Assembly (NCBI GenBank): GCA_035620735.1
Contig: DASPGH010000051.1
Span: 563 to 64,562 of the forward strand
Source: Acidimicrobiia bacterium
GTDB taxonomy: Bacteria; Actinomycetota; Acidimicrobiia; Spongiisociales; ZC4RG35
Direction of reading: 5' to 3'
DNA length: 64,000 bases
In this document: positions 27,918 through 61,648 of the stretch, piece by piece
Numbering within the stretch: position 1 is the first letter of the stretch
Layout of the letters: each line of letters begins with the position of its first letter
Program-made: the position numbers and the translations under genes
Notes under the pieces: model-generated
Seen by the model: the letters and a program-made list of their open reading frames with translations, nothing else
Told to the model about the DNA's origin: nothing
Databases searched by the model: none

Positions 27918-28571
27918 CTACGAGCGAGCAAGCGAACAGGCCCCCCGATCGGGGGGGCCTGTTCTCTTCTGTCTGAGACTCAGCGACGGTCGCGACGCAG
28001 AAGGGTCCTGACTGCGGAGTTCTTCCAGATATTGCGCCACTCCCTCCATTGGCGGCGCTTGTCGACCAGGGCTGATCGCTGCGGGACGGGGCCCTTTCGA
28101 CCCGTAGGTCGCGGCCAACTCGGTGAGCATATGGGTCCAGATCTTGTCCTCGAGCCTCGATGTGTAGATGTGGAACGACACTTCGTAGAGCGGGTCGTTC
28201 GCCCGGACCATGAGATCGATACGGGCCCTGGTCGCCCCCTCGGCTTCATGAGCGCTGAACGTGATGATGGCCGTCCAGGGGTGGCCTTCTGGTGTCATGT
28301 GGGTCCACGAACGCTCGTCGGCATAAATGACCCTGACACCGCTGATCACCTTGGTCGGGCCGCGACCGCCGGCGATGATGGCGACCTGGCCCGGCGCAAT
28401 GCCACCCACCGGCGCATAGAACTTGTTGTCCGGGTACCAAAGGTCACCGAATTTGGCCATCCAGGTCTCGGTGACCTCCTCGGGTGACGGGCCCGGGACC
28501 GGGATCCCGTACGACTTCTGCCAGAGCCGGCCGTCCGTGAAGTGGCCCGGTGGGCTTGCGACCTTCGACAT
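27918..28571 (-). CDS. conserved hypothetical protein (DUF1990-like pattern), probable frameshift near its 3' end
   Basis: ORF 27918..28643, with ATG 28571 chosen. The middle segment VRVIYADERSWTHMTPEGHPWTAIITFSA resembles DUF1990. After the GGGCCCC run (28088-28094) a different frame has better codon bias and stops at 27980, outside the terminator. Confidence 0.45.
   Translation of the reverse strand: MSKVASPPGHFTDGRLWQKSYGIPVPGPSPEEVTETWMAKFGDLWYPDNKFYAPVGGIAPGQVAIIAGGRGPTKVISGVRVIYADERSWTHMTPEGHPWTAIITFSAHEAEGATRARIDLMVRANDPLYEVSFHIYTSRLEDKIWTHMLTELAATYGSKGPRPAAISPGRQAPPMEGVAQYLEELRSQDPSASRPSLSLRQKRTGPPDRGACSLARS
27933..27970 (+). terminator. intrinsic terminator
   Basis: 13-bp stem GAACAGGCCCCCC gatcg GGGGGGCCTGTTC followed by a T-rich tail (TCTTCTGTCT). 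Confidence 0.7.
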
Positions 28572-28762
28572 TGCCCTTGCCGACACCCTCGATGGTCTCA
28601 TCGACGTGGAACACCTCGATCGGCTTGGCCCAGTTCGGTGCATTTCTCGGCTCGGTCAACACGAACTCCTTTCGATCACGATTTGTACTGCGGGACCGTT
28701 CCCGAACCGTTACGAGACCGGTGACATCGTCTGGTGACGAAGATGAGCCACAATCAGACCCA

Positions 28763-30151
28763 ATGACGGACTTCGATGCCACGGTCGTGGGCGCCGGGCC
28801 CAACGGCCTGGCTGCAGCGGTCGAACTGGCCCGCTCGGGCAGAAAAACGCTCCTCGTAGAAGCAGCCCGCGAGATCGGCGGGGGCACCCGCACCGCGGAG
28901 CTGACACTTCCAGGATTCCGTCATGACGTTTGCTCGGCGATCCATCCAGCCGGTGTCGCATCTCCCTACTTCAACGAAATCGACCTCGAGGTCGATTGGG
29001 TCCGATCTCCGATCCCCTTGAGCCATCCTCTCGATGGCGGACGGGTGGCTGTATTGCATCGGTCGGTCGATGAGACGGCGTCCGGACTTGGCGAGGACGA
29101 AGCCTCCTACCGTCGGCTGATGGAGCCGATCGTCGAACAGATCGATGAGTACCTCGACGTTGCACTCGGACCGGTGAAAGTGGTGCCAGACCATCCCGGC
29201 GCTTTCACCAGACTCGGACTCATAGGTGGGCTGCCCGTAGCCGCCCTCGCCAAGCGCTTCGACACCGAGGAGGGAAAAGGGCTCTTCTCAGGCATTGCCG
29301 CGCATGCCATCGCACCCTTTCACGGTCTGGCCACGTCTGCAGTGGGCCTCATGCTCGGGGCCATCGCCCACAGCCACGGGTGGCCGCTTGCCCGCGGTGG
29401 CTCCCGGTCGATCACAGAGGCGCTGGCTGCCCGCTTCGAAGAGCTCGGAGGCAAAATCGAACTGGACCGGGAGATCGACTCAGTCGATGACCTGCCCCCG
29501 GGTCCGATCTTCCTCGATGTCATGCCTCCGGCGGCTCACCGCATCGCCCGGACCCGCATAGCACCGGCGAAGGCTCGCCAGCTCTCCCGGTGGCGTCCGG
29601 GACCCGCCGTCTTCAAGGTGGACTGGGCCCTGGACGAGCCGATTCCCTGGGCCGATCCCTCGAGTCGACAGGCCGCCACCGTTCATCTTGGTGGACGGTA
29701 CGCCGAAGTCGCTGCCTCAGAGCGCGCCGTCGCCCGCGGGGACCACCCCAAACGACCATTCGTGCTCCTTGCCCAGCCGTCACTGTTCGATGATTCACGG
29801 GCTCCCGACGGCAAACACACTGCCTGGGCCTACTGCCACGTCCCCAACGGATCCGTTGTTGACATGACCGACGCCGTCGAGAATCAGGTCGAGCGGTTCG
29901 CACCCGGGTTCAAGGAGATCATCTTGGAACGCGCCACCCGTGATGCGATGGGATACCAGGCATACAACCCCAACTACATCGGCGGCGATATCGGAGGGGG
30001 TCAGTACGGATTGAGGAAGGTCCTTCAGATCGGGGCGGAGTCGCCTTACTCACTGGGCGGAGACGTCTATCTGTGCTCTGCAGCCACCCCACCGGGAGCC
30101 GGTGTTCACGGGATGTGTGGGTATCACGCCGTACGCGCGGCGTTGGATTGA
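28763..30151 (+). CDS. NAD(P)/FAD-dependent oxidoreductase, phytoene-desaturase (CrtI-like) family
   Basis: ATG 28763 gives MTDFDATVVGAGPNGLAAAVELARSGRKTLLVE (Rossmann GxGxxG). The C-terminal part is CrtI-like (YLCSAATPPGAGVHG). The ORF upstream of 28763 is noise. Confidence 0.8.
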   Translation: MTDFDATVVGAGPNGLAAAVELARSGRKTLLVEAAREIGGGTRTAELTLPGFRHDVCSAIHPAGVASPYFNEIDLEVDWVRSPIPLSHPLDGGRVAVLHRSVDETASGLGEDEASYRRLMEPIVEQIDEYLDVALGPVKVVPDHPGAFTRLGLIGGLPVAALAKRFDTEEGKGLFSGIAAHAIAPFHGLATSAVGLMLGAIAHSHGWPLARGGSRSITEALAARFEELGGKIELDREIDSVDDLPPGPIFLDVMPPAAHRIARTRIAPAKARQLSRWRPGPAVFKVDWALDEPIPWADPSSRQAATVHLGGRYAEVAASERAVARGDHPKRPFVLLAQPSLFDDSRAPDGKHTAWAYCHVPNGSVVDMTDAVENQVERFAPGFKEIILERATRDAMGYQAYNPNYIGGDIGGGQYGLRKVLQIGAESPYSLGGDVYLCSAATPPGAGVHGMCGYHAVRAALD

Positions 30152-30172
30152 CCGGTAGACGTCTCGACCCGC

Positions 30173-30208
30173 GTGCACACCGTTGCGCGCAACGCAACGT
30201 TGTGCACC
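30173..30208 (+). terminator. stem-loop downstream of the oxidoreductase gene
   Basis: GTGCACAcCGTTG ... CAACGtTGTGCAC forms a 13-bp stem with one mismatch. An inner perfect palindrome CGTTGCGCGCAACG is present. There is no clear U-tail. Confidence 0.4.
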
Positions 30209-30229
30209 GGCAAGATCTCATTTGCGAGC

Positions 30230-30536
30230 TCACCCGGCGACCGCCGAGACCTCGTCGTCATAGATGCCGATTGCCTCGTCGAGACGGGTGAGGTTGAAGA
30301 TCTGGCAATAGTTCTCGGTGAGACCGTATGCCCGAAGGGCATGTCCCGCTCGTTGCGCCCGTATCAGAGTCGTCACCAACAGTCCTATACCGCCACTGTT
30401 CATCTACTCGAGACCCTCTAAGTTGAGGATGACGGCTGTCGCCCCCGTCTCCTGGCGTCTCGTGTGCCTCGCTGGGAGCCTGAAGTGTGGCTCTTGCGGG
30501 AGTGGAAGCGCCGGAACTACCCCGTATCGGCCTTCA
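30230..30536 (-). pseudogene. STAS-domain anti-sigma-factor antagonist (SpoIIAA/RsbV-like) pseudogene
   Basis: My own translation gives ...TGATAVILNLEGLE-TAG-MNSGGIGLLVTTLIRAQRAGHALRAYGLTENYCQIFNLTRLDEAIGIYDDEVSAVAG. The in-frame TAG (30404-30406) sits where Y/F is normally found. The upstream part is degenerate, and the only ATG (30536) is in another frame. Confidence 0.6.
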
Positions 30537-30566
30537 TGAAAACCGCTTCGATCGTTTCTCGAGTTT

Positions 30567-31619
30567 TCAGCCCATCAACCCCCGCACCCTGTCCACTGGT
30601 AGTGCGTGGGCCGTGCGGCCCCTCTGGCCCGTCGTGGTCTCGGCTGCACATAGTGCGTTGAGAATGGACTCCTCGGTGGCATCGGCTACCGCATGGAAGA
30701 GTCCGTCCATATGGCTCATGGGCATCACCTCGACCTTCCATGGCACATCCCTCGACAGAAGACGGTTCCCACTGGCGAATGTGAGGAAGATGTCGCCACT
30801 GGAGTCGTGCCCGTATCCGCCGACTCTCCCCAGCCCGATGGCGATCCTCTTCGCCAGACGTTGGCATTGGATCGGGATGAGTGGAGCGTCGGTGCCCGCC
30901 ACGGCGATGATCGACCCGCCGCGAGGCGGCTCGTCCCAGGCAGATGGCACCTCGTCGGTTCCGATGAAACGGCCGATGGGCACACCGTCGATGCGGAGGT
31001 CCTCACGTCTGCCGTAGTTCGCCTGGACCAGGACTCCCAGTGTGTAGGTGCCGGACTTGGTCTCGACGATTCGCGATGAGGTGCCGATCCCTCCTTTGAA
31101 CTCGTGGCAGATCATCCCTGTGCCCCCACCGACCCCGCCCTCCGCCACCGGGCCTTCGGCCGCCGACTCAAGAGCCTGTCGGACGTGGCCCTCGGTCAGC
31201 GGGAAAGAGTCGGCGTCACTGAGCCATCCGTCCCAAGTCTCCGCCACCACCGGTAGGTGGAAGGCGTCGACGCCTCCCGACTCCACGGCCAGTCTGACCA
31301 AGGCATCACGGACCAATCCAACTTGATGGGTGCTGGTGATCCCGATGGGCGAGTCGATGAGCCCGGTCTCCTCGATCCAGGGGATGCCAGTCATCTCACC
31401 GTTCCCGCTGAAGTTGTGATAGCCGGCAAATGCGGTTTCGGTCCACCCGTCACCCGCCCGGGGGACAATCACTGTGACCCCCGTCCTGACCACACTGGGC
31501 TCGTCCCGGACCAGGCTCGAGTGCCCCACCTGCACACCGGGCACATCGGTGATGGCATTGTTGGGCCCGGTCGGAAGCGTCCCGATCTCCACTCCGAGGT
31601 CTCTGAGTCTTGGTCTCAT
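30567..31619 (-). CDS. P1/S58 family peptidase (DmpA-type L-aminopeptidase/D-esterase)
   Basis: 350 aa with the N-terminus IGTLPTGPNNAITDVPGVQVGH and GGTGMICHEFKGGIGTSS (self-processing Gly-Ser/Thr region). Confidence 0.85.
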   Translation of the reverse strand: MRPRLRDLGVEIGTLPTGPNNAITDVPGVQVGHSSLVRDEPSVVRTGVTVIVPRAGDGWTETAFAGYHNFSGNGEMTGIPWIEETGLIDSPIGITSTHQVGLVRDALVRLAVESGGVDAFHLPVVAETWDGWLSDADSFPLTEGHVRQALESAAEGPVAEGGVGGGTGMICHEFKGGIGTSSRIVETKSGTYTLGVLVQANYGRREDLRIDGVPIGRFIGTDEVPSAWDEPPRGGSIIAVAGTDAPLIPIQCQRLAKRIAIGLGRVGGYGHDSSGDIFLTFASGNRLLSRDVPWKVEVMPMSHMDGLFHAVADATEESILNALCAAETTTGQRGRTAHALPVDRVRGLMG

Positions 31620-31685
31620 CGGCAGCGGGGAACCTACTTCTCACGAGTACCGTGCCGCGTTCATGAGACCCGTTTGGTCCCTGAC

Positions 31686-32990
31686 ATGACTTCGTTGTTC
31701 GCTCGGGGGGTGGGGTTGCCCGGGGCGCAGCGAGCCGAGGGATGTTGGATAATCGACACCGCTGGTAATCGCTACCTCGACGGAGCCTCCGGGGCCCTCG
31801 TCGTCAACCTTGGGCACAACGACTCGAGAGTGAACTCGGCGATTCTCCGACAGCTCGACGCTGTCGCCTACGTGCACTCGACTGCGTTCAATTCCGATGT
31901 GCTGGAGGAATATGCTTCGTTGCTCGCCTCCAAGCTTCCCATGGACGACCCGACCATCTACCCGGTGTCGGGAGGTTCGGAAGCGGTGGAGACCGCTCTC
32001 AAAGTGGCGAGGGCGTTCCATCTGGCCAACGACGAGCCCGAGCGGACCGTGTTCATCGGGCGCGAGCTCTCCTATCACGGGAACACAGTGGGTGCCCTCG
32101 ACGTCTCGGGCCGCCAGTCGCTGCGCGATCCCTACCTGCCATGGCTGGGTCGGGCCGGTCGAGTCCCCGGCGTGCTCGAGTACCGATGCCCCAATCCAGG
32201 ACACCCACAGGACTGCGCCGAATGGCACGCACGCGCTCTGCAGGCCGAGATCGAGCGTGTGGGACCGGCGCAGGTCGCCGCCTTCATCGCCGAGCCCATC
32301 GGTGGCGCCGCCAGCGGTGCCGCGATGCCGCCTGCCGGCTACTGGGACGCCGTGGTAGAGACATGCCGACGGCACGGGATCCTGGTGATAGCGGATGAGG
32401 TCATGACCGGATTCGGTCGAACTGGCGAATGGTTCGCCTCCGAGCACTTCGGCCTGCAACCCGACATCATGACCATGGCCAAAGGCGCCTCCAGCGGATA
32501 TTGGCCCCTTGGCGTTTGTGCCATGTCCCGAAGGGTCTCCGACACCCTCGAAGACACCGATTTCATCCACGGCTTCACCTTCTCCCATCACATGGTGGGT
32601 GCTGTGACAGGGCGGGCCGTGATCAAGCGGCTGGATGAGCTTCGGCTCGTGGAGCGAGCCGAGGAGCGTGGCTTTCTCCTCGGAGACGCCCTCACCTCGC
32701 TGATCGGTGAGAGTCCCCTGGTGGGTGATGTGCGGGGCATCGGTCTGCTTTGGGCGGTCGAGATCGTGGAGGATCGAAGCCAGAGGACGCCATTCCCGGC
32801 TGCACAACGCATGGCTGCCCGACTCACCCGGGCCGCCCGAGCGAAGGGTCTTCTCGTCTACCCATCCACCGGATGCGCAGGGGGAGGCACGGGTGACCTG
32901 ATCATGATCGGCCCTCCTCTCGTCGTTTCCGAACCCGAGATCGAGACGCTGGCCGATCGGCTGGCTGCTGCACTGAAGGAGCTGGAATGA
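31686..32990 (+). CDS. class III (omega) aminotransferase
   Basis: ATG 31686 within ORF 31257..32990. It has the PLP motifs SGGSEAVETALK and DEVMTGFGRTGEWFA, and MAKG as the Lys site. Confidence 0.85.
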   Translation: MTSLFARGVGLPGAQRAEGCWIIDTAGNRYLDGASGALVVNLGHNDSRVNSAILRQLDAVAYVHSTAFNSDVLEEYASLLASKLPMDDPTIYPVSGGSEAVETALKVARAFHLANDEPERTVFIGRELSYHGNTVGALDVSGRQSLRDPYLPWLGRAGRVPGVLEYRCPNPGHPQDCAEWHARALQAEIERVGPAQVAAFIAEPIGGAASGAAMPPAGYWDAVVETCRRHGILVIADEVMTGFGRTGEWFASEHFGLQPDIMTMAKGASSGYWPLGVCAMSRRVSDTLEDTDFIHGFTFSHHMVGAVTGRAVIKRLDELRLVERAEERGFLLGDALTSLIGESPLVGDVRGIGLLWAVEIVEDRSQRTPFPAAQRMAARLTRAARAKGLLVYPSTGCAGGGTGDLIMIGPPLVVSEPEIETLADRLAAALKELE

Positions 32991-34048
32991 GTCTCATCGC
33001 CGTTTGGTCGAAAGAGGCCCTGGCCCACGATCCAGAGGGAGAGGTCTGGATCGGACTTCCCATCGAGGGAGACGAGACCCCCGAGCGGGGAAACGTCTTG
33101 AAGGATGCGATCGATCAGATGGGTCTCGAGGTGGTCGAGCCCCACGAGCACGGCGATGACCCCATCACCGCGGTCCACGACCCGGGCATGCTCACCTATC
33201 TGGAGACTGCCTACGCGGAGTGGGTCGCTGCGGGCTACACCGTGGACCCCGGACAGGACCGTGTCGTCGCCTATGCATTCAGGCATCCCGGGGCGTTCGG
33301 CCATGTTGCCAACCGTCTCCCCTCCAGTCGGTCAGCGATGGCGGGCGTCTACTGCATGGATACCTGCACGGTGCTGGGGCCCAATTCCTACCGCGGAATC
33401 CGCTACGCCGTCGACGCCTCGCTGACCGCCGCCGACCTCGTGCTCAGCACCGGTAGTCATGCCTACGCCGCCGTGCGTCCACCTGGCCATCATGCCGGGA
33501 CCGACTACTTCGGGGGATCCTGCTATCTGAACAATGCCGCCATCGCCGCCAACTACCTGGCGTCGTCGGGCGGCTCGCGTGTCGGCATCGTCGATGTCGA
33601 CGCCCATCACGGCAACGGCACTCAGCAGATCTTCTACGAGCGGGACGACGTCGTCTACACATCAGTTCACGTCGACCCGGGCGAGGGTTGGTTTCCCCAC
33701 TGGTGCGGGTTCGCCGACGAAACGGGAAGCGGCCGCGGCGAAGGACACAACCGAAACTTCCCATTGGCCCCGGGCTCCGGCGACGACGAAGTCGCCCGGG
33801 CCGTCGCACGAGCGGCCGAGATCGTCGTCGACTTCGGAGTCGAGTATCTCGTTGTATCACTCGGGGTCGACTCGGGAGCCAACGATGAGAACTCCCCGTT
33901 CGGTGTGACCACCGAAGGGTTCGGACACGTCGGCGACCTGCTCCTGAGTGTCGGACTCCCCACACTGCTGGTGCAGGAAGGTGGCTATTCGCTTCCCGAC
34001 CTGGCGGCTGACACCTCCGCTGTGCTCCGACGGTTCTCGGGAGTCTGA
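32987..34048 (+). CDS. histone-deacetylase-family amidohydrolase (acetylpolyamine/acetoin-utilisation type)
   Basis: 353 aa with RPPGHHA, VDVDAHHGNGTQQIFY and LVQEGGY motifs. 4-nt overlap with the aminotransferase gene. Confidence 0.85.
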   Translation: MSLIAVWSKEALAHDPEGEVWIGLPIEGDETPERGNVLKDAIDQMGLEVVEPHEHGDDPITAVHDPGMLTYLETAYAEWVAAGYTVDPGQDRVVAYAFRHPGAFGHVANRLPSSRSAMAGVYCMDTCTVLGPNSYRGIRYAVDASLTAADLVLSTGSHAYAAVRPPGHHAGTDYFGGSCYLNNAAIAANYLASSGGSRVGIVDVDAHHGNGTQQIFYERDDVVYTSVHVDPGEGWFPHWCGFADETGSGRGEGHNRNFPLAPGSGDDEVARAVARAAEIVVDFGVEYLVVSLGVDSGANDENSPFGVTTEGFGHVGDLLLSVGLPTLLVQEGGYSLPDLAADTSAVLRRFSGV

Positions 34049-34611
34049 TCGTCCCCGGGCACCCGAGACCTCACCATTCGAGTTCTCGTCTTCTCGCCTT
34101 CTGAGACGAGTCTTTGAGCGGCGAGGACAAAGACGACCACGGTCGTACCCGCATACATGCCGAGCATGAGAGGTGAGTCGGTGTCGGTCCCTGACTGGAT
34201 CCCGTGGAGCAGGGCAGAGAGAAAAACACCGAACGAGGCGAAGTGGATTAGACGCCACGCCCGTTGCCCGATAAAGCGGCGAATGTAGAAGCTCGAGACG
34301 ACGACAGCCAAACCGTAGAGAGCCACCACCCCGAGCCCCACCGCCATCGGTCTCCAGGAGGCGACACCCGGGATGAGGATCTCACTCCAGGAGAACGGAA
34401 GAAACTCATGCACCGAAAGGACCGAAATGTGTACGAGTGTCGCCACCAGTGCCCCCAGCCCCAAAGACTCGTGGAACCACGTCAATGGCCTGGCCTTGAC
34501 CCATCTTCCCATCAGCTTCGTGGACACGAGAAGACCCCAGATCACAGTGCCGCTGAGCAGCATGAACGCGGCGATTCCCGACCCACGAATCAAGAGCCAC
34601 TCGACGCTCAT
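33985..34611 (-). CDS. ferric-reductase-like (MsrQ/YedZ-type) transmembrane protein
   Basis: 208 aa with about 6 TM segments and paired conserved His (WFHESLG...LVHISVLSVHEF; LIHFASF...LLHG). The last 64 nt overlap the convergent deacetylase gene. Confidence 0.7.
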   Translation of the reverse strand: MSVEWLLIRGSGIAAFMLLSGTVIWGLLVSTKLMGRWVKARPLTWFHESLGLGALVATLVHISVLSVHEFLPFSWSEILIPGVASWRPMAVGLGVVALYGLAVVVSSFYIRRFIGQRAWRLIHFASFGVFLSALLHGIQSGTDTDSPLMLGMYAGTTVVVFVLAAQRLVSEGEKTRTRMVRSRVPGDDQTPENRRSTAEVSAARSGSE

Positions 34612-35447
34612 GCCACCAGCTCCACATCATGGGTCCCATAGACCGAACCGTCGTTCCAGATGACGACCGAACCGTGTACCCACGGACATTCGTCGGCCCA
34701 CACCAGTCCGTCGACACCCTGGAGCAGAATCGCCTTGGCGGCTGCCTCCGCCTCGACCGCCGAGCTCGCAACCGCAGTCGCGCTCAGAATCGGGGTCTCG
34801 ACGGGTTCCATGGTGGACGGGTCGATGATGTGACTCACCTCGCGTGAGCCCACTTCCCATCGCCTGCGGGCGATCGAGCTGGTAGCCAGTCCACGCCGGC
34901 CAATGTGGACCTTCGCCACGACATCGCCCCACGGGTCGATGATCGAGGCGACAGTCGCGGTGTCGTTGCTGCGCATGTCGCCGCCGGCGGAAACCACGAC
35001 TGCGAGACCCCGGGCAACAGCCTGGTCACATGCCCAACCTTTGGCGACGCCTCCCAGGTCAAGCGTGGTTCCCGAGCCCAACCTGACCGCTCCGTCGCCG
35101 AAGGTCCAGGAGACCTGGTGTCCCTCCGCCGGGGAGTCGGCAAGCGAGATGACCTCGGGGAACGTGCGGTCGTAGCCCCAGGAGGTGAGTACGCCCCCCA
35201 CGCCGATGTCCACCAGGCCACTCGTCAGCTCTCGCAAGTGCGAGGCGCAGTCGAGAACCTCCGCCATCATCGGGGACACCGATGTCGCACCAGGTGCGCG
35301 GGCGTTGATCGATGAGAGCTCCGAGGTCGGTCGGAATCGACTACAGACCTCTTCGACTTCCTCGAACCACTCCACTACTCCGGTACCATCGGCCTCGACC
35401 CACGCCTCGACGAGAGTTCCCATTGCATCGAACGTGATGTGTCTCAC
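34608..35447 (-). CDS. apbE: FAD:protein FMN transferase
   Basis: 279 aa that begins directly at the conserved FDAMGT core. It has the ApbE pattern DLGGVAKGWA. There is no signal peptide or lipobox. 4-nt overlaps on both sides. Confidence 0.85.
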   Translation of the reverse strand: MRHITFDAMGTLVEAWVEADGTGVVEWFEEVEEVCSRFRPTSELSSINARAPGATSVSPMMAEVLDCASHLRELTSGLVDIGVGGVLTSWGYDRTFPEVISLADSPAEGHQVSWTFGDGAVRLGSGTTLDLGGVAKGWACDQAVARGLAVVVSAGGDMRSNDTATVASIIDPWGDVVAKVHIGRRGLATSSIARRRWEVGSREVSHIIDPSTMEPVETPILSATAVASSAVEAEAAAKAILLQGVDGLVWADECPWVHGSVVIWNDGSVYGTHDVELVA

Positions 35448-35746
35448 GATCCGGCGCTTCGGGGTTGTGGCGGACTGACACCGGGAGGGTTCGCCACCGG
35501 CTCCACCACCACCGTCACCGGCTGATTCCTTTCCTCACGTGGAGGGCGGATGATGACCAAGCCGTTGGAAGGCATCTCCGGGATCGATACTTCGTTGATT
35601 GAGTCGACGACTGCTCTCTGCTGCGGGTCTGGCTCACCAGGATCTGCCACCTGCTGTGGTGGGGCGATCACGGTGGTTCCCCAGGTGACCGCGGCACCGG
35701 TCCAGACCGCGATGGCGGCCACACGGAACGGACTGAACCGACTCAT
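35444..35746 (-). CDS. hypothetical signal-anchored protein (100 aa, Pro-rich)
   Basis: N-terminal hydrophobic segment FRVAAIAVWTGAAVTWGTTVIA. Translationally coupled on both sides. No family was recognised. Confidence 0.5.
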   Translation of the reverse strand: MSRFSPFRVAAIAVWTGAAVTWGTTVIAPPQQVADPGEPDPQQRAVVDSINEVSIPEMPSNGLVIIRPPREERNQPVTVVVEPVANPPGVSPPQPRSAGS

Positions 35747-36039
35747 CCTGTTCCCGGTGTATCTGTTGGGAAGGCAGCACCGTGCGACACGAGGACCCGC
35801 ACGATCTCCGGGGCCAGGTCCCTCGAGGCACCAGCCGCGAGCAGATCAGAAGGGGCGGCAGCCAGGACCCGCTCCACCGAGTCGTCCAGCGTCGAAGCCA
35901 TCTCCGGTTGTGTCACGAACGATGGCTCAGAGGCGATCGGGGGCACGTCCCCGGAGTTCAGAGAGCCGTTGAGGGCGACGAGACCGGCGATGAGCACCGC
36001 GGCGCCGAACAGGGCCACGCTTCGATCGACATCCATCAA
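35743..36039 (-). CDS. hypothetical signal-anchored protein (98 aa)
   Basis: N-terminal TM segment VALFGAAVLIAGLVAL. It contains LLAAGASRD, the nearest thing in the operon to an ApbE target motif. Coupled on both sides. Confidence 0.5.
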   Translation of the reverse strand: MMDVDRSVALFGAAVLIAGLVALNGSLNSGDVPPIASEPSFVTQPEMASTLDDSVERVLAAAPSDLLAAGASRDLAPEIVRVLVSHGAAFPTDTPGTG

Positions 36040-36578
36040 TCGTCTTCCCGCTCGTCGTGGACGTCGTCGTGGTCGTCGTCGTCTTCGTCATGATCGTCGC
36101 CCTCGCGATCTTCACTGTCGTGGTCTTCGTCCCAGGCGTCGTCGTCCTCCCACTCCAAGTCTGTTTCCCCGGTTTGGCTCGCGACGGTCGGACCCGTCCC
36201 CTGCGCCGCCGTAACGACGACCTGGGCCGGTGCAGTCTCCTCTGCCGGCGGAAGCGGAATGCCCGCATCGGAACAAATCGGACGCAGCGCATCCAGGGCA
36301 GCCTGCTGGAATGCGTCGATGGTCCCGGCTATCTCGCGCTCAACGAGGGCCAGACCAGCGGGCCCGCAGGCGCTTTGCAGATCGGACGAACGGGCATGGG
36401 TTGTCGATGTCGACGATTCGACGAAGGACGCAGCCGGCTGGCTCGGGCCCGGACCGGGGCCGGTGTCAGCGCCGACATTGGGGATCAGAACCGCGGCAAC
36501 GGCGCTCAAGGGGACAAGAAGTGAGCCGATGGCGAAGGCGAGAGACGTCTTCGGCCCTCTCTGAGATCTGCCCGTCAT
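36036..36578 (-). CDS. hypothetical exported protein with extreme Asp/Glu/His C-terminal tail
   Basis: 180 aa with a signal-like N-terminus and two Cys. The last roughly 40 aa read DLEWEDDDAWDEDHDSEDREGDDHDEDDDDHDDVHDEREDD. Confidence 0.55.
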   Translation of the reverse strand: MTGRSQRGPKTSLAFAIGSLLVPLSAVAAVLIPNVGADTGPGPGPSQPAASFVESSTSTTHARSSDLQSACGPAGLALVEREIAGTIDAFQQAALDALRPICSDAGIPLPPAEETAPAQVVVTAAQGTGPTVASQTGETDLEWEDDDAWDEDHDSEDREGDDHDEDDDDHDDVHDEREDD

Positions 36579-36579
36579 C

Positions 36580-36855
36580 TCAGATACCCAGCAGAATGCA
36601 CTCGGCTGGGCATTCCTCAGCAGCCTCGATCACCAGATCGAGCAGTTCTTCGGGAACTCTTGCCGCGCCTGCCATCCCGTCGGGCCCGTGCCCTGCACCC
36701 TCGTCTCCGTCGAAGACCGTCGTCTCGCCGAAATACCGGTCGCTCTCCTTGACCGCCCACGTCCCATCAGACCGGGGGTGAAAGACTTCGGGTGCGATCT
36801 GTTCACATGTCCCAGCTCCCATGCAGCTGTCCCGGTCGATCCAAACTGTCCTCAC
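36580..36855 (-). CDS. small ferredoxin (single Fe-S cluster type)
   Basis: GTG 36855 follows AAGGAA. It has the motifs VWIDRDSCMGAGTCEQIAPEVF ... ECPAECI. The ORF extends to 36903, but that part lacks an RBS. Confidence 0.75.
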   Translation of the reverse strand: MRTVWIDRDSCMGAGTCEQIAPEVFHPRSDGTWAVKESDRYFGETTVFDGDEGAGHGPDGMAGAARVPEELLDLVIEAAEECPAECILLGI

Positions 36856-36915
36856 GAGGTTCCTTTCGCTTGTTCCGACTGACGATGGCCAGGAGGCCCT
36901 CAAGACCTCCTCAAG

Positions 36916-38832
36916 GTGGCGTCAACCAACCGTCAAACGTTCTCGACGATCTGTGAGACCCGTTTCCGATCACCAACGGCAAATCCTCGGCTATCTTGTC
37001 CCGGTTCTCCTCCGCGGGAGGCGCGGATCGTGAGCTCGAGTCGATGGTTGGGTCGGGATGAACATGGTGGCGTGCCGAGTCAGGTTCGGCCTGATTTCCT
37101 GTTGCCTCCCCACTGGCGTCTAGACGCCATCTACGCCACTACGAGACCTCACCACCCCGCTGTTTCGCCCGACGCCAGCGCCATCGCTTTCATACTCTCC
37201 GCCGACGCGACCAGCGACATCTACACGGTCCGGGTCGGCGGCGGACAGCCACGGCGGCTGACAACCAACCGCAGACTGGCCTCCTACTGGGAGGACACGG
37301 GGCCGAAATGGTCTCCCGACGGGTCAACCATCGCCTACACGTCTGGTGATGACAGTTTCGTTGTCGATTCCGAGGGAGGGCCGCCCCGTCGTCTACCCGA
37401 GGTTGCGTTGGGCAACTGGCTGACCGACACGCAACTCGTGGTGATCGTCGACCGCAAACGCACCAGCCGTCTTGCCCTCGTCGACGTCGACGACCCTTGG
37501 CCACAGCCCTTCGGTCCCAAAGGTGGCGACGTGGGTCAGGTGTCGATATCGGGGGATGGTCGGGTGGTCGCCACGTTTTGGCCGAGGGACGACTTCAGTC
37601 GCTCCGACATCGTCGTGGCAACGCCGGGTGGCGAATGGTCGACCCTCGTCGGCCACGAGGACCGACGGGCCCTCGACGCCGCGGTGAGCGGCACGAGGGT
37701 CGCCTATGCCCTCGAGGATGGGGACTGGCGCGCCGTGTACCTGACCGACCTGGATGGAACGAGCCACGATCTCCTGGCAAAGGACGACGCCGACTTCAGC
37801 GACCTGAACTGGTCTCCCGACGGGAGCACACTCCTCGCCATCCGCACCCACCGCGGACAGGCCGATCTGGTGACTATCGCCGAGGACGGCTCCGTCGAGG
37901 TGGTGGAGGAGGGCGGTTTCTGGCAGACACCGCAATGGGCAGGGGCGTCAATCGTTGCCGCCCACGAATCCCACCACCGAGCGCCGCGTCTCGTCTCGCT
38001 GGTCGGGACCACCTCCAGTACCCTCCTCGACGGAGCGCCGGCCGCAGTCGCCACGGCACCCCACCGCTCCTTCGACCGGGTCTCCTACATGACGAGCGAC
38101 GGACTCGAGATCGAAGGGTTCCTGTTCCGGCCCGAGGACACGTCGAAGCCGGTGCCGGCGGTCGTCTATCCCCACGGTGGTCCGACATCTGTCTACGGCG
38201 ACGAGTGGGACGGACACGCCCAGTACTTCATCGACAAGGGATACGCCTGGTTCGCCATCAACTTCAGAGGGTCGACTTCATACGGGCTCGGGCTCGAACG
38301 CGCCAACCACGATGACTGGGGCGTCGGCGATACCCGGGACTGCATCGAAGCGGGGCGCTACCTGCAGGGCCTCGACTGGGTGGATGGTCAGCGACTTGCC
38401 ATCTTCGGGGCCAGCTACGGCAGCTATATGGCTCTCACCAGCCTGGTCCACCCGGACAACCCTTTTGCCTGCGGTGTCGCCAAGTACGGCGACAGCGACA
38501 TCCTCACCTCCTGGGCGCAGGGGGACCGTCCCGGCGGCGACGATCTGGAGCGGATGATGGGCCATCCCTCAGAGAACCGGGACGCATATCGCGCCGGCTC
38601 GCCGATCCACCAGATCGGGAGCATCGACAAGCCAATTCTCGTCGCCCACGGCGAGAAGGACGCCCGCGTGCATGTCAAACAGGCCGAAGAGCTCGTCGAA
38701 GAGCTGAAGCGTCTCGGCAAGAGGTTCGAGTACGTGACGTACCCGGACGAAGGGCACGGCTTCCTGCGCCGTGACTCCCAGATCGACTTCTACAAACGAC
38801 TCGAGAAGTTCCTCGATTGGCACTTGATGTGA
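36916..38832 (+). CDS. S9 family serine peptidase (beta-propeller plus prolyl-oligopeptidase-type catalytic domain)
   Basis: 638 aa with TolB-like propeller repeats (SPDGSTIAY, SGDGRVVA, SPDGSTLLA). The catalytic domain has GASYGSYMA (GxSxG), a later D and an H (GHGF). The start is uncertain. Confidence 0.85.
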   Translation: MASTNRQTFSTICETRFRSPTANPRLSCPGSPPREARIVSSSRWLGRDEHGGVPSQVRPDFLLPPHWRLDAIYATTRPHHPAVSPDASAIAFILSADATSDIYTVRVGGGQPRRLTTNRRLASYWEDTGPKWSPDGSTIAYTSGDDSFVVDSEGGPPRRLPEVALGNWLTDTQLVVIVDRKRTSRLALVDVDDPWPQPFGPKGGDVGQVSISGDGRVVATFWPRDDFSRSDIVVATPGGEWSTLVGHEDRRALDAAVSGTRVAYALEDGDWRAVYLTDLDGTSHDLLAKDDADFSDLNWSPDGSTLLAIRTHRGQADLVTIAEDGSVEVVEEGGFWQTPQWAGASIVAAHESHHRAPRLVSLVGTTSSTLLDGAPAAVATAPHRSFDRVSYMTSDGLEIEGFLFRPEDTSKPVPAVVYPHGGPTSVYGDEWDGHAQYFIDKGYAWFAINFRGSTSYGLGLERANHDDWGVGDTRDCIEAGRYLQGLDWVDGQRLAIFGASYGSYMALTSLVHPDNPFACGVAKYGDSDILTSWAQGDRPGGDDLERMMGHPSENRDAYRAGSPIHQIGSIDKPILVAHGEKDARVHVKQAEELVEELKRLGKRFEYVTYPDEGHGFLRRDSQIDFYKRLEKFLDWHLM

Positions 38833-38888
38833 CTTTGAGGACGGGCTGTCGGCCCGGTCCGCCGGGGGCGACGGAAAGGTAAAGAAAA

Positions 38889-40610
38889 ATGAACAGAAGG
38901 GCGTTCGCCCTCATCATCGCTGCGGTGATGGCATTCACGGCGTGTGCCGGTGATCCAGACACCGAGGCGACATCCACAACCAGCTCAGAGACCGACGGGA
39001 CGACCGGGACTACCGGGCCCACTGGCACGACTGCTGCCACCGGCGACGCCGGCGGCACGGTTCGGGTCGGGTGGGGCGGGTCACCGGACAGCCTCAACCC
39101 GGGCAACGGGGTCCTGGCCGAGGCGTACACCGTCTACGAGCTCATGTATGACACACCGATCGGGCTCGACCTGGACGGTAACTACATTCCGGAGCTGGCC
39201 TCCGAATGGTCAGTGTCGGCCGATGGTCTCACCTGGACGATGACCCTCGTCGACAACGCGGTGTTTCACGACGGGACACCGCTCACCTCCGAGGACGTCA
39301 AGTACTCACTCGAGCTTTGGCGTGACACCGAGGACTTCCCGTTCCTCCCGTCATACCCGGACGTGTTCACCGTGGAGGCACCGGACCCGACCACGGTCGT
39401 GCTCACAGTCGAAGAGCCAATCGGCAACTTCGAATCGCGCATGGTCTTCATGTACATCGTCCCCAAGCACATCTGGGAGGCGGAGTCCGATCCAGTCGCG
39501 TTCGATAACGCGGCGATGATCGGGACCGGCTCGTTCAAACTCGCCGAGTACAGCCAGGGCGAATTCGTCCGGCTCGAGGCCAACACCGACTATTGGGCTG
39601 GTCGGCCCAACGTCGACGAGGTGATCTTCCAGACCATCGAGAACCCAGACGCCCGTGTCACCGCACTTCGCAATGGGGATGTCGACATGATCACCGAGCT
39701 CCCCAACACCGCGATCCCGACCCTGGAAGGAGACGCCAACGTCGAGTTGGTGACGGGCGATCCGCTCGCCCCGAGCCTCACCGACGTGTTCTTCAATATC
39801 GTCCCCGCAGACCTGTGCCCTCCCGAGGACGGAGTCTGCAGCGGGCATCCGGCACTGCAAGACATCCAGGTGCGGACCGCCCTGGCGCACGCCATCGACA
39901 AGCAGCAGCTGATCGATGTCGCCCTCCTCGGTCTGGGAACGCCCGGAATCAGTCTGACACCGACGGGTCTTGGTGACTTCTTCAACTCCTCGCTGGAGGA
40001 CTACAGCTTCGATCTCGAGATGGCGGCCGGCATCCTCGAAGACGCCGGCTACGTCGACAGTGACGGAGACGGAGTCAGGGAGTGTCTCGCCGATCAGGAC
40101 TGTGAGAATCTGACATTCCGGTTCAACTACCCGAACGACAGTGACACGGCCCCTCGCGAGACCGAGTTGATCTCGGGATGGTGGAGCGAGATTGGTGTTG
40201 CCACGACTGTCCAGCCGTTGGACCCGGACACCCTGACTTCGGTGTGCTGTCCCACGTTCGACTACGACGTCATCCGCTGGGGATGGGGATCGGACCCCGA
40301 CCCGGGATTCCTCCTCGGGGCCGCGTTGTGCTCGGAGATCGACTCCGGTTTCTCGGAGACCGGCTATTGCAACGAGGACTTCGACGCCCTGTACGACGCC
40401 CAGGCCGTTGAGACAGACCCGGACGCGAGGAAGGACATCATCTGGGAGATGCAGGAGATCCTCTTACGAGATCTGCCCTACGTCATCCCCTACTACGACC
40501 AGGCGGTGCAGGCCTATCGGGTCGACACATTCACCGGGTGGCAGACCGACTCGGCCAAGCTGGCACTCGAAGATCCCAGCTCGCTCAACGTGATCAGCTC
40601 GACGGGCTGA
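38889..40610 (+). CDS. ABC transporter substrate-binding lipoprotein, family 5 (peptide/nickel type)
   Basis: 573 aa with a lipobox FTACAG, a Thr-rich tether and an SBP_bac_5-like body. Confidence 0.88.
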   Translation: MNRRAFALIIAAVMAFTACAGDPDTEATSTTSSETDGTTGTTGPTGTTAATGDAGGTVRVGWGGSPDSLNPGNGVLAEAYTVYELMYDTPIGLDLDGNYIPELASEWSVSADGLTWTMTLVDNAVFHDGTPLTSEDVKYSLELWRDTEDFPFLPSYPDVFTVEAPDPTTVVLTVEEPIGNFESRMVFMYIVPKHIWEAESDPVAFDNAAMIGTGSFKLAEYSQGEFVRLEANTDYWAGRPNVDEVIFQTIENPDARVTALRNGDVDMITELPNTAIPTLEGDANVELVTGDPLAPSLTDVFFNIVPADLCPPEDGVCSGHPALQDIQVRTALAHAIDKQQLIDVALLGLGTPGISLTPTGLGDFFNSSLEDYSFDLEMAAGILEDAGYVDSDGDGVRECLADQDCENLTFRFNYPNDSDTAPRETELISGWWSEIGVATTVQPLDPDTLTSVCCPTFDYDVIRWGWGSDPDPGFLLGAALCSEIDSGFSETGYCNEDFDALYDAQAVETDPDARKDIIWEMQEILLRDLPYVIPYYDQAVQAYRVDTFTGWQTDSAKLALEDPSSLNVISSTG

Positions 40611-40665
40611 CTTCGATGACCAATGGGGACGGGACCTCGGTCCCGTCCCCATTTGGAGGCTCCAC

Positions 40666-41676
40666 TTGGCTGCAAGCCGACGTCGTTTCGTCACCCAGAA
40701 GATCGTCTTCGCCGTTCTGACGGTCTTCGCCGTGATCACCTTCAACTTCTTCCTCTTCCGCGTACTCCCCGGCGACCCGGCGGTCGGTGGAATGCGGGAT
40801 CCCAGGCTCTCACCTGAACGCGTGGAGGCGCTGCGCCAGAGATTCGGTGTCGACGACCCGGTCTTTCTCAACTTCGAGGGCGGCAATGTGTTCGAGTCTC
40901 AGTACTTCGCCTATCTGGGCGCCCTCTCCAACGGAGATCTCGGCACCTCCTATGCCTTCCGCGACCAACAGGTGACAACTCTGTTGACCCACGCCCTGGT
41001 CAACACACTTTGGCTCGTGGTCCCGGCTCAGATCATCTCGATCGTCCTGGGCGTGGGTCTCGGTCTGATTGCCGCTTATCGCCGTGGCACACGGGTCGAC
41101 GTGTCCGCCTTGACCTTCTCGCTCATCATGTGGTCGCTCCCCACCTTCTTCCTCGGGATCATCCTGCTCTTCCTGGGTACCACCTGGTTCGACCTCCCCG
41201 CAGCTGGACGAGTGACGATCGGTGCCCAATACACCGACGTCTGGGACCAAATCGGCGACATCGTCTCTCACATGATCCTCCCCACCGCCACCCTCTCGCT
41301 GGTGCTTCTAGGCGAGTACATGCTGATCATGCGGAGCTCGGTGGTAGAGGTGCTCGGCGAGGACTACATCCTCACCGCGCGCGCCGTGGGCATCCGCCGC
41401 CCCAGCATCCTCCGTCGTCATGCGTTCCGCAACGCCATGCTCCCCATAGTCACCCTGATCGCCCTCAACCTCGGCTTCACGGTTTCGGGCGCCATTCAGG
41501 TCGAGACGGTGTTCTCCTGGCCCGGTCTCGGCCACCTCACCGTCGATGCGGTCAATCAGCGTGACTTCCCGGTGCTACAGGGTGCCTTCCTCCTGCTCGC
41601 ATTATCCGTCGTCATCGCCAACCTGATCGTCGAGCTCATCTACGGCTATCTCGATCCGCGGGTCAAAGAGGCATGA
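40666..41676 (+). CDS. ABC transporter permease (DppB/OppB type)
   Basis: 336 aa with a typical N-terminus (VLTVFAVITFNFFLFRVLPGDP) and an EAA-loop region. Confidence 0.9.
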   Translation: MAASRRRFVTQKIVFAVLTVFAVITFNFFLFRVLPGDPAVGGMRDPRLSPERVEALRQRFGVDDPVFLNFEGGNVFESQYFAYLGALSNGDLGTSYAFRDQQVTTLLTHALVNTLWLVVPAQIISIVLGVGLGLIAAYRRGTRVDVSALTFSLIMWSLPTFFLGIILLFLGTTWFDLPAAGRVTIGAQYTDVWDQIGDIVSHMILPTATLSLVLLGEYMLIMRSSVVEVLGEDYILTARAVGIRRPSILRRHAFRNAMLPIVTLIALNLGFTVSGAIQVETVFSWPGLGHLTVDAVNQRDFPVLQGAFLLLALSVVIANLIVELIYGYLDPRVKEA

Positions 41677-59284: not shown

Positions 59285-60050
59285 CTACCCGGTCCCACGC
59301 GCTCGAAGCTCTCCGACGACGCCATTGAGCACGTCTGCCACGGGGTCGGGCTGGTCGAGATGCACATCGTGGCCGCTGTCGTCGATCTCGACCACTTGTA
59401 AGCCAGGTCGTGCTGAGATCATCTCCTCGATCTCATCGTCAGCGATTACGCCATCAGCTGCCCTGATCAAAGGTGAGCGCTGAGAGCTGACTCCACTCGT
59501 GAGCTCGACTAGTTCCCGCTAGGGCACGCATGGTGGCAAGCATGGCCGGAGGATCGAAGCGGGACACGAATCCGTTCGGCGTCGTGGCCCGCCCTTCGAC
59601 CCAAGCCGGTGTGGAAAGCCGTCCTTTCCAAAGAAACGCGCTGCTTCTTGTGTCGGCGAAACTGCCCGGCCATCTATCGAACCATGAGCGGAGAATCCTT
59701 TGCGCAGTTTTCTGATACCCAGCGGCTACGCATGGGCCTCCTCCAGCTACACACGGAACGACTACCTCGACCACTGGGCCGATGGCGGAGAGACCACCGT
59801 CAAAGAGGCGTCCTGCTCTGCCGGTCCTGCCACAGTGAGAGCATGTCAAACAGCGGGAACAGAGACGCACCCGAACCCGAACCTAGGGGTGGCAGTTTCC
59901 CCACCACCCCGGAAGAAACCGAGCAGCAAGCGGAATCCGATTGGTCGTTGACTGGTCGCACTCGTCCCGAGGGCTTCGAAGAGGCGGGCCCGGGCATGCC
60001 GTGAAGGCCTGGGTCGAAGCCGTTGGCGCGCTCAGGGACTTGGAGCCTCA
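59285..60050 (-). pseudogene. alpha/beta hydrolase pseudogene (multiple frameshifts)
   Basis: The C-terminal piece LIRAADGVIADDEIEEMISARPGLQVVEIDDSGHDVHLDQPDPV (59285-59470) is a typical hydrolase end. The preceding piece FDPPAMLATMRAL...SQLSALT is in another frame. The nucleophile-elbow region is degenerate (VVPCVAGGGP). Confidence 0.45.
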
Positions 60051-60217
60051 AATAGACACATCGAGTCCGCCTCGATGGCCGGCACTCCTTGGCACCGGGT
60101 GGAGGTTCTATAGAGGGTCTCGATCAAAGCAGGTGTCTGATGACTGTGGACCTGATCGGCGCTGCTGGCATGTCCATTACAGGACCGTAAACGCCTTTGG
60201 CCGCGCTTTACCTTCGG

Positions 60218-61333: not shown

Positions 61334-61618
61334 ACCAGCCTGAGCCTAGGTGCCAATATCGAGGCCCGGTCTCAGAGGTCAGGTCGGTATTGAAGTCGAG
61401 GGCTCGAACGATCCCGATCTCACATCCGGGCCAATTGGGTCGAAACGTCCGGCTGCGTCAACGATCCCCCGCACGACGAGGCACTTCCCGTGGGGTTAGG
61501 TGCCAATGCAACTCGCCCGTCAATGGCCGATCAGCCGAATGGGTTACCAAAGGTCGTCATGCTCGAACCCCACGACGAGCACGGGACACTGAAATTCACT
61601 GCTTCACGGATTTCGCAG

Positions 61619-61648
61619 CGCGCTCGGAAGGACTCGAACCCTCAACCT
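61619..61648 (-). pseudogene. tRNA 3'-end fragment (variable loop, T-arm, acceptor 3' strand)
   Basis: The minus-strand RNA reads AGGTT-GAGGG-TTCGAGT-CCTTC-CGAGCGC-G, a canonical T-arm with G53 and C61. No matching 5' acceptor strand, D-arm or anticodon arm could be folded upstream. Confidence 0.45.

Follow-up and report, generated by a model that had tools for sequence, protein, structure and literature searches.

A conserved operon of Acidimicrobiia joins a ferredoxin, an ApbE without signal peptide and a ferric-reductase-like membrane protein to a candidate flavin acceptor of a new type

Among the main ways in which bacteria move electrons out of the cytoplasm is flavinylation by ApbE. The canonical acceptor motif is D-x-x-[S/T]-G-A-[S/T], with flavin mononucleotide (FMN) attached to the last residue, and genomes with orphan apbE genes imply substrates yet to be identified (PMC8238504). 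Surveys of flavinylation gene clusters dropped those in which ApbE has no signal peptide (PMC8238504), and the operon analysed here is such an excluded case. It lies on the minus strand of a 64,000-nucleotide stretch of contig DASPGH010000051.1 from an Acidimicrobiia bacterium (assembly GCA_035620735.1), hereafter called the window, and comprises six genes encoding a ferredoxin (Fd), three small proteins named p180, p98 and p100, an ApbE and a membrane protein of the Ferric_reduct/MsrQ type (FRD). Which protein, if any, does this ApbE flavinylate, and what would the six products do together?

Here we present evidence that the six genes very probably form a real and conserved electron-transfer operon. 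We favour a transmembrane electron-transfer module with a non-canonical flavinylation partner, because the operon encodes no FMN_bind domain, ApbE has no upstream start that would lengthen it, and the genes are conserved together. The best explanation overall, which we hold tentatively, is that Fd feeds a di-haem FRD that passes electrons to a flavin on the C-terminal tail of p100.

The gene structure is clear. All six open reading frames between 33985 and 36855 and the short junctions between them, as listed in a preliminary description of this DNA, are confirmed (Table 1). As read from the window sequence, a 1-nt spacer separates Fd from p180, p180 and p98 meet in TGATG (an overlap of -1, or of -4 with a TTG start), and the remaining genes overlap by -4, through ATGA between p98 and p100, GTGA between p100 and ApbE and ATGA between ApbE and FRD. 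Codon-position GC fits coding sequence in all six genes, and the same six calls are made on an identical 3.9-kb contig from a public run. The GTG at 36855 is supported as the true start of Fd, since orthologues and an independent gene call agree on it; the 107-aa frame listed from a TTG at 36903 reaches into the repeat and promoter region.

Conservation of this arrangement was followed in a locus scan with one genome per species, which gave 80 loci, and then by BLAST and a chain-walk over stop and start codons. The core p180-p98-p100-ApbE-FRD stands in the same order in 45 of 61 Acidimicrobiia species loci, and most of the loci without the full core are broken by contig ends. Fd precedes the core in 31 of the 45 complete operons. 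The -4 overlap recurs in 59 of the 61 loci between ApbE and FRD, in 52 between p100 and ApbE and in 46 between p98 and p100, while p180 and p98 overlap by -4 or -1 in 40; p98 is syntenic in 49 loci. At least 45 species-level genomes keep order, frames, overlaps and invariant motifs at a protein identity of 30-45 %. Co-conservation elsewhere, a check proposed in the preliminary description, is thus strong. ENA and NCBI gene calls in four loci (L082-L085, by our numbering of the scanned loci) give the same structure and leave the three small genes without a Pfam family. The genes flanking the operon are not conserved across loci and the operon is therefore a self-contained unit.

A reduced module is found in a second phylum, Chloroflexota (L065-L081: Promineifilaceae, Ardenticatenaceae and 'Leptovillus'). 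Four proteins make up this version: a coiled-coil protein, anchored and with DD at the end of its His/Glu/Asp tail; a second anchored protein with R-x-R-S-S-R, KSSK or RSSQ at its end, encoded directly before an ApbE without signal peptide; this ApbE; and an FRD with six transmembrane helices.

Pfam bears out the earlier naming of both the ferredoxin (Fer4_15) and ApbE (PF02424), and NCBIfam contributes no further family. Residues 9-250 of ApbE match PF02424 over model positions 1-254 of 266 (E=3e-40, 138.9 bits, cut-off 25.6), and phmmer finds the solved ApbE structures 6nxi, 1vrm and 3pnd. The conserved catalytic centre of ApbE consists of Ser241, His257 and Asp285 in Vibrio cholerae numbering (PMC12052999). 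In alignment with the V. cholerae protein (6nxi), Ser190 (ATSS) and His206 (SHIIDP) are retained in 57 orthologues, and Glu234 stands in place of the Asp of the A-D-x-x-x-T motif in the whole clade. Because the catalytic Ser and His are retained, the window enzyme looks catalytically competent, with an altered metal site.

Neither a signal peptide nor a lipobox is present in the window ApbE, in the 57 orthologues or in the Chloroflexota relatives. The frame runs into a stop codon 90 nt upstream with no start codon between, so that the missing signal peptide is real and not a start-site artefact. Kyte-Doolittle hydropathy does not discriminate here; the argument is carried by the Pfam boundary at residue 9 and by the missing upstream start, and the preliminary description was right that ApbE has no signal peptide.

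The operon offers this enzyme no canonical target. With E values up to 1 allowed, FMN_bind (PF04205), DUF2271 and DUF3570 match none of the six operon products and none of 21 orthologues each of p100, p180 and p98, in agreement with the earlier statement that the operon lacks an FMN_bind domain. No conserved [ST][GS]A[ST] occurs in the six operon products. D-x-x-[S/T]-G-A-[S/T] is neither present in them nor conserved in orthologues, and it is missing from all window open reading frames of at least 100 aa. The AGAS of p98 ('LLAAGASRD'), put forward earlier as the nearest acceptor motif, was rejected when its column proved not to be conserved in 45 orthologues. 'SGAT' in six FRD orthologues and WTGA[A/S/T] in the p100 helix were also set aside as sporadic and located within membrane segments.

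What the preliminary description overlooked is the invariant C-terminus of p100 (...QPRSAGS in the window). Some 95 % of the family end in the consensus [S/T]-x-G-S-COOH: the last residue is Ser in 119 of 120 database relatives, 95 of the 120 end in SSGS and the others in S[A/G/N/R/E/K]GS, and about 115 of 125 representatives at 50 % identity carry the [S/T]xGS end. Both upstream Ser codons of the tail alternate between AGY and TCN, and selection therefore acts on the p100 protein. The last Ser is always encoded by TCN, though the overlapping ATGA or GTGA dictates its third base only. In intact operons the tail is encoded directly upstream of ApbE.

Compared with the canonical motif, the p100 tail matches both hydroxyl positions and has small residues between them. 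The canonical motif itself tolerates change: Asp to Ala has a minor effect, Gly to Ala and Ala to Val retain ~50 % of flavinylation, and Ser is tolerated for Thr (PMC12052999). A 7-residue flavin-tag works best at a protein terminus (PMC12052999), and FMN_red proteins have predicted flavinylation sites on an unstructured C-terminal extension (PMC11334425). Judged by its sequence, the p100 tail is a possible flavin acceptor, and we propose it as the best candidate; the operon and the window hold no second conserved motif that could serve.

The rest of p100 is consistent with a tethered leash. A conserved basic motif, R-F...R-W.R-I (R3, R8), precedes a single helix that AF2 places at residues 6-26, and the Pro-rich ectodomain and tail are disordered with no regular structure in the model. 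The ectodomain carries the motifs MP.PP..GLVI.RY.P and a V.TV.V strand. The family comprises 181 clusters at 90 % identity and 129 at 50 %, and all relatives are stand-alone proteins of ~100-150 aa with no Pfam family and no fusions among the 181 clusters and 129 representatives. Searches for remote homology (Pfam, NCBIfam, PDB profiles and a profile search of 1.84 billion representatives) gave nothing significant. Residues 16-19 of p100 (W-T-G-A-A, window 35681-35692) form a near-copy of the flavinylation motif within the helix; most orthologues have T-G-A-A here, and eight have T-G-A-S/T. This stretch is not taken as the site because it lies inside the predicted helix and its acceptor position is usually Ala.

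One rearranged locus (L071 3738-6000) has two p100-like genes, each encoding a basic N-terminus, an anchor, a Ser/Thr/Pro linker and an SxGS-COOH end, with linkers unrelated to each other. The plus-strand copy directly follows FRD and ends in SSQGS with no gene overlapping its stop; the minus-strand copy ends in SSSGS, 2 nt before an ApbE without signal peptide.

The membrane protein would provide the conduit. The preliminary description had called FRD a ferric-reductase or MsrQ-like protein with paired His, and this stands. Against PF01794 the window protein reaches 24.0 bits (E=4.2e-5), less than the 28 bits of the gathering score, and the family is matched by 20 of 20 aligned members (best 3.2e-8, model positions 2-120 of 121); 316 homologues were found, which are Acidimicrobiia proteins from metagenome-assembled genomes. 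His47, His61, His68, His123 and His136 are invariant in the 20 sequences. His47 and His61 lie on one helix at a 14-residue spacing and His123 and His136 on another at a 13-residue spacing, as is the case in di-haem FRD proteins, and they are so placed that His47/His123 would form an inner and His61/His136 an outer pair, ligating two haems. Five hydrophobic segments are present rather than the six transmembrane helices counted earlier. Loops 1 and 3 carry four basic residues each and are therefore predicted to be cytoplasmic, whereas loops 2 and 4 are acidic. This predicted topology follows from the positive-inside rule and from the correspondence of the helices to those of Escherichia coli MsrQ, which we take to be its TM2-TM6, with the first MsrQ helix missing. 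Chloroflexota homologues retain an extra N-terminal helix. G141-T142-D143, on the predicted outer loop after His136, is invariant in all 20 sequences and retained in Chloroflexota relatives at ~35 % identity. The C-terminal tail of FRD is conserved in the closest relatives only. No gene for MsrP or another molybdopterin subunit is present in the operon or its flanks.

Fd is presumed to be the cytoplasmic electron donor. It matches Fer4_15 (PF13459) at 6.8e-14 and Fer4_13 at 1.1e-10, and its motif C-M-G-A-G-T-C ... E-C-P-A-E-C belongs to a C-x5-C ... C-P-x-x-C pattern conserved in 23 orthologues. Fd is a single-cluster ferredoxin, and its cluster may be 3Fe-4S or an atypical 4Fe-4S. Ala occupies the second ligand position (C-x-x-A-x-x-C), an additional Cys follows the CP, and an insert of ~25 residues carries a conserved GHGPDG.

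The other two small proteins, like p100, have no significant Pfam family, in line with the earlier finding of no recognisable domain in any of the three. p180 has a basic N-terminus, an anchor and a variable Pro/Thr-rich linker, followed by a conserved block of ~45 residues (DL..ACG..G..LV..E..G.I...QQAALDALR.IC...G.PLPG). AF2 models residues 63-107 as a three-helix hairpin with pLDDT >90 and the rest as disordered. Exactly two Cys are present in 34 of 39 sequences. Asp and Glu together account for a median of 57 % of the last 40 residues and His for 10 %. Asp is the final residue in 37 of 39 sequences, and the tails are rich in ExxE-, DxxD- and HxxE-type spacings. Neither Pfam, NCBIfam and PDB-profile searches nor Foldseek with the AF2 model against PDB found a remote homologue of p180. 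One match to ZrgA (8.4e-5, in 1 of 21 orthologues) was due to the His/Asp tail alone and was not taken as homology. In p98 an N-terminal anchor and a variable linker lead to a helical motif in the C-terminal part that is small and conserved (V..RVL...G.A....LPP.V..VL...G..L.V), with no significant match in Pfam, NCBIfam or PDB profile searches. Because of the basic N-termini, the Pro/Thr-rich linkers, of a kind common in exoproteins of actinobacteria, and the Cys pair of p180, all three proteins look N-in/C-out and outside-facing.

Upstream of Fd stand four direct repeats at an exact 11-bp period, with the unit (T/G/C)TTGA, followed by a -10-like hexamer in which the promoter function would reside. 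Of 32 upstream regions of orthologues, 29 have TT(GA/AG/AA/AT/AC) repeats spaced by 11 bp, whereas of 1620 random segments 46 do; 16 of the 29 have three or more units, and in orthologues a conserved GGCAnCnT comes after the repeats. By their sequence the repeats are a putative OmpR/PhoB-type response-regulator box overlapping the -35 region, and they may resemble the mycobacterial MprA box. In five loci with divergent versions of the operon (L083, L084, L085, L068 and L070), genes for an OmpR-type response regulator and a HAMP/HisKA histidine kinase directly adjoin it, and in loci with this adjoining pair the 11-bp repeats are also found in front of the p180 genes. Together the conserved repeats and the adjoining OmpR-type genes of relatives indicate that a dedicated two-component system controls the operon. 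Homologues of the L068, L083 and L085 systems are not encoded in the 64-kb window at 1e-5. No Rfam family, the FMN riboswitch included, was matched in the whole window.

Table 1. Positions of the operon genes and associated features (window coordinates unless a locus is named)
Feature	Position	Strand	Remarks
Ferredoxin (Fd)	36580-36855	minus	91 aa from GTG
p180	36036-36578	minus	180 aa
p98	35743-36036/36039	minus	97-98 aa
p100	35444-35746	minus	100 aa
ApbE	34608-35447	minus	279 aa
FRD (Ferric_reduct/MsrQ-type)	33985-34611	minus	208 aa
p180 helical hairpin, invariant C71 and C102	36258-36392	minus	from alignments and AF2
p180 C-terminal Asp/Glu/His tail	about 36039-36173	minus	from tail statistics
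p100 C-terminal heptad QPRSAGS	35447-35467	minus	Ser100 at 35447-35449; candidate acceptor
Four direct repeats TTTGACGGTTG GTTGACGCCAC CTTGAGGAGGT CTTGAGGGCCT	36894-36937	minus	exact 11-bp period, upstream of the Fd gene
-10-like hexamer CATCGT	36882-36887	minus	~7 nt downstream of the last repeat
Shine-Dalgarno GAAAGGA	36861-36867	minus	from window sequence
Regulator/kinase loci	L083 5650-7562; L084 5334-7246; L085 1710-3700; L068 7548-9573; L070 1676-2353		

These elements can be assembled into a self-contained, separately regulated route by which cytoplasmic electrons would reach the outside of the membrane. Fd would dock on the basic cytoplasmic loops of FRD, a presumed cytochrome b with five transmembrane helices, and electrons would cross the membrane through two stacked haems, from the inner His47/His123 to the outer His61/His136. 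Outside, three tethered proteins would await them: p100 as a disordered leash, p180 as a putatively disulfide-stapled hairpin with an acidic tail, and p98 with its helical motif. ApbE would attach FMN to the terminal Ser motif of p100, using cytosolic flavin adenine dinucleotide (FAD), before the tail is translocated; within p100 the tail emerges last from the ribosome, and translation of apbE is coupled to that of p100. Cytosolic ApbEs do exist (PMC12052999). The FMN-tipped tail could then accept electrons from the outer haem as a tethered flavin and pass them on outside the cell, where Fe(III) or another metal on the p180 tail is a plausible acceptor. Modification before export is needed in this scheme because ApbE is cytoplasmic by sequence and the p100 tail is predicted to be outside. 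We regard the complete sequence of events, with a leash flavinylated before export, an FMN-tipped shuttle outside and metal on the p180 tail, as clearly unlikely.

Several observations weigh against flavinylation of the p100 tail or against parts of the route. The tail reads S-[S/A/G]-G-S and not [S/T]-G-A-[S/T], the leading Asp is missing, and flavinylation of an S-x-G-S-type motif is without a demonstrated example. The corresponding Chloroflexota tails end in a different motif, SSR or SSK. The invariant Gly codon (GGN) of the tail is only 4-6 nt away from the ApbE start downstream, and at this one position a constraint at the nucleotide level is possible. The p100 helix is only moderately hydrophobic, which makes the topology of p100 uncertain. 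Flavinylation before export has no precedent, and here the model is weakest. In ApbE, the Thr of the Mg site is replaced by Lys238 in the window and the main clade (A-E-A-x-A-K-A), and the chemistry may be altered; the Thr is kept in Chloroflexota relatives and L068. An adjacent ApbE is absent from four Chloroflexota loci (L066, L067, L073 and L075), and one subclade has no Fd in the operon; in L083 and L085 Fd is encoded divergently nearby. Finally, the domain searches for a canonical target covered the operon products and orthologue sets and the motif search the window, and a canonical FMN_bind protein or a second, secreted ApbE may be encoded in the rest of the genome.

The preliminary description had suggested a module for transmembrane electron transfer or metal reduction. 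Electron transfer is favoured by the evidence, whereas metal reduction stays a suggestion. It is plausible because of the acidic and His-containing tails, one of which weakly matches ZrgA, because the FRD family includes ferric and cupric reductases, and because MsrQ-like clusters are linked to iron: Meheust et al. tie MsrQ-like and PepSY-like flavinylation clusters to iron assimilation (PMC8238504). On the other side, no iron transporter is linked to the operon, and the best matches to an IdeR/DtxR iron box upstream of it are no better than background. The terminal acceptor may instead be O2 or a redox substrate in the cell wall.

ApbE might also flavinylate nothing in the operon. It could serve a canonical FMN_bind protein encoded elsewhere, or act on the cytoplasmic face of FRD as an FAD-binding, FAD-hydrolysing (Ftp-like) or structural subunit that would provide or keep flavin close to the inner haem, and we consider this unlikely but far from negligible. 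The flavin of NOX and STEAP relatives is on the cytoplasmic side, where an ApbE without signal peptide would also be, and in the Fd-less subclade ApbE is the sole cytoplasmic product of the operon. The clade-wide changes of metal-site Asp to Glu and Thr to Lys and the missing canonical motif point the same way, and some ApbE/Ftp proteins are FAD pyrophosphatases, not transferases (PMC4767422). Yet the catalytic Ser and His are conserved, and both the adjacency of p100 and ApbE, kept even in the rearranged L071, and the Ser-ending tail would be left unexplained. As an obligatory structural subunit ApbE does not fit, because the four Chloroflexota loci without an adjacent ApbE keep their p100-like and FRD genes. 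Moreover, we know of no redox role for ApbE-bound FAD.

A distinctly improbable alternative makes FRD itself the substrate, at Thr142 of the G-T-D loop or at a conserved Ser/Thr of a cytoplasmic loop, for example Thr44 beside His47, so that haem and flavin would form a conduit like NqrB or RnfD and the small proteins would be accessory. These two membrane subunits are known ApbE substrates (PMC11334425). The G-T-D residues are invariant in the 20 sequences and kept in Chloroflexota relatives, Thr142 lies six residues past His136, [A/S]-G-T resembles the S-G-S of p100, and apbE is translationally coupled to FRD by the -4 overlap (59 of 61 loci). The loop is predicted to be extracytoplasmic, however, and a cytoplasmic ApbE could hardly reach it in a protein inserted co-translationally, while Thr44 is not conserved in distant homologues that retain an ApbE without signal peptide. 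FRD contains no [ST]GA[ST], and the invariant p100 C-terminus with its fixed place before apbE would find no explanation.

Flavinylation outside the cell would follow if p100 and ApbE were the two halves of one anchored, exported ApbE, joined by programmed frameshifting or read-through. p100 does provide the anchor and linker that ApbE lacks, the stop/start overlap is conserved, and the ApbE frame is open for at least 300 nt upstream in 26 of 55 loci. This open frame is not conserved, because the distances to the upstream stop scatter (median 279 nt, range 9-633), with an in-frame stop 9 nt upstream of ApbE in five loci. The last p100 codons hold no conserved slippery sequence, the stop and start of L071 are 2 nt apart, and no fused homologue occurs among the 129 representatives or 181 clusters. 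The variable upstream frame and the missing fused homologues exclude a conserved fusion, and the idea as a whole is very improbable. Hardly any credence is due to the view that the flavinylated partner was lost, as the preliminary description had allowed, and that apbE or the small genes are decaying remnants or high-GC annotation artefacts: the small proteins are of low complexity, largely disordered and without a database family, but order, frames, overlaps and invariant motifs are maintained across species, codon-position GC is of the coding type, a second phylum has its own versions, and conservation of the ApbE catalytic Ser and His in 57 orthologues makes a lost partner unlikely.

Around the operon, window positions 28550-43547 hold genes of peptide and amino-acid catabolism. 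They encode a FAD amine-oxidase-like protein, an S58 peptidase, a class-III aminotransferase, a deacetylase and an S9 peptidase, together with a family-5 solute-binding protein, which is accompanied by permease and ATPase genes of the Opp/Dpp type; as neighbours of the operon these genes are not conserved in other genomes. The 3' end of FRD overlaps that of the convergent histone-deacetylase-family gene (32987-34048) by 64 nt, at 33985-34048. The divergent S9-peptidase frame is listed from 36916, and its actual start is probably later. In one marine Acidimicrobiia lineage (L083 226-2315), DsrE/DsrC-like sulfur-relay genes and a TatA gene adjoin the operon. At 61618-61715 of the window ARAGORN calls a 98-nt tRNA-Pro(TGG), which is probably false or atypical. 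Rfam matches neither a tRNA nor another family, be it in the whole window at the gathering threshold or in 61400-61900 with E values up to 1; G+C falls to 0.596 in 60001-62000.

The operon is kept across Acidimicrobiia, an abundant and largely uncultured class. If the p100 tail is an acceptor, substrates of ApbE are no longer to be sought among folded [S/T]GA[S/T] domains alone but also among bare C-terminal peptides, nature supplies a minimal 'flavin-tag', and the question is raised of how a covalent flavin reaches the cell exterior. Should flavinylation before export prove true, it would define a new class of ApbE substrate and a new way to place covalent flavin outside the cytoplasm in which neither FAD nor the transferase has to be exported. 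Should the tail turn out not to be an acceptor, there is still a new Fd-linked FRD module for electron export, which brings three new families of proteins and has an operator of the two-component type to itself.

Among known systems the closest are the MsrQ-like flavinylation clusters, mainly actinobacterial, in which a PF01794 two-haem protein is combined with apbE and electron export or iron reduction is proposed (PMC8238504). To be selected, those clusters had to have an ApbE or a substrate with a signal peptide or a lipidation site (PMC8238504). The window operon falls outside this operational definition, because its ApbE has no signal peptide and FMN_bind, DUF2271 and DUF3570 are missing. 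It also lacks an NAD domain. Its likely donor is Fd, and instead of a flavin-binding domain it has three orphan tethered proteins. E. coli MsrPQ (YedYZ) shares the Ferric_reduct fold and the His pair at 13-residue spacing on the helix equivalent to MsrQ TM5. The window FRD differs in that it has five helices instead of six, all four His and a GTD loop specific to its clade, and in that it is associated with apbE. With no MsrP or other molybdoenzyme gene the operon is not MsrPQ, and with no NAD/FAD domain it is not a NOX-type fusion.

Like the cytoplasmic ApbE of Klebsiella pneumoniae (PMC12052999), the window ApbE has no signal peptide and would draw on cytosolic FAD. The Klebsiella target is a soluble fumarate reductase with a canonical FMN_bind domain and motif, whereas the candidates here are membrane-tethered proteins or FRD, with a non-canonical motif. 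The FMN_red extensions and the flavin-tag (PMC11334425, PMC12052999) share with p100 a candidate acceptor Ser/Thr on a short unstructured terminal peptide; they carry D-x-x-[S/T]-G-A-[S/T], and FMN_red also a folded flavin pocket, while p100 ends in S-x-G-S-COOH and has no folded domain. Eukaryotic NOX, STEAP and FRE proteins resemble the module in a di-haem FRD core that passes electrons from a cytoplasmic donor to an external metal or O2. Their FAD/NAD(P)H dehydrogenase is fused or bound on the cytoplasmic side, whereas here a separate Fd is the likely donor and the flavin is proposed to be outside. Listeria monocytogenes, also monoderm, has a surface-tethered flavinylated protein, for which p100 is the candidate here, and an ApbE-like transferase in PplA and FmnB. 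In contrast to p100, PplA contains FMN_bind domains that are folded; FmnB is a secreted enzyme that receives flavin from an exporter, and the membrane step runs through quinones with Ndh2 and EetAB, not through a di-haem FRD. Set beside these systems, the operon is best filed as a new Fd-linked di-haem FRD module for electron export, with a cytoplasm-type ApbE, three families of tethered proteins and a candidate new type of ApbE acceptor.

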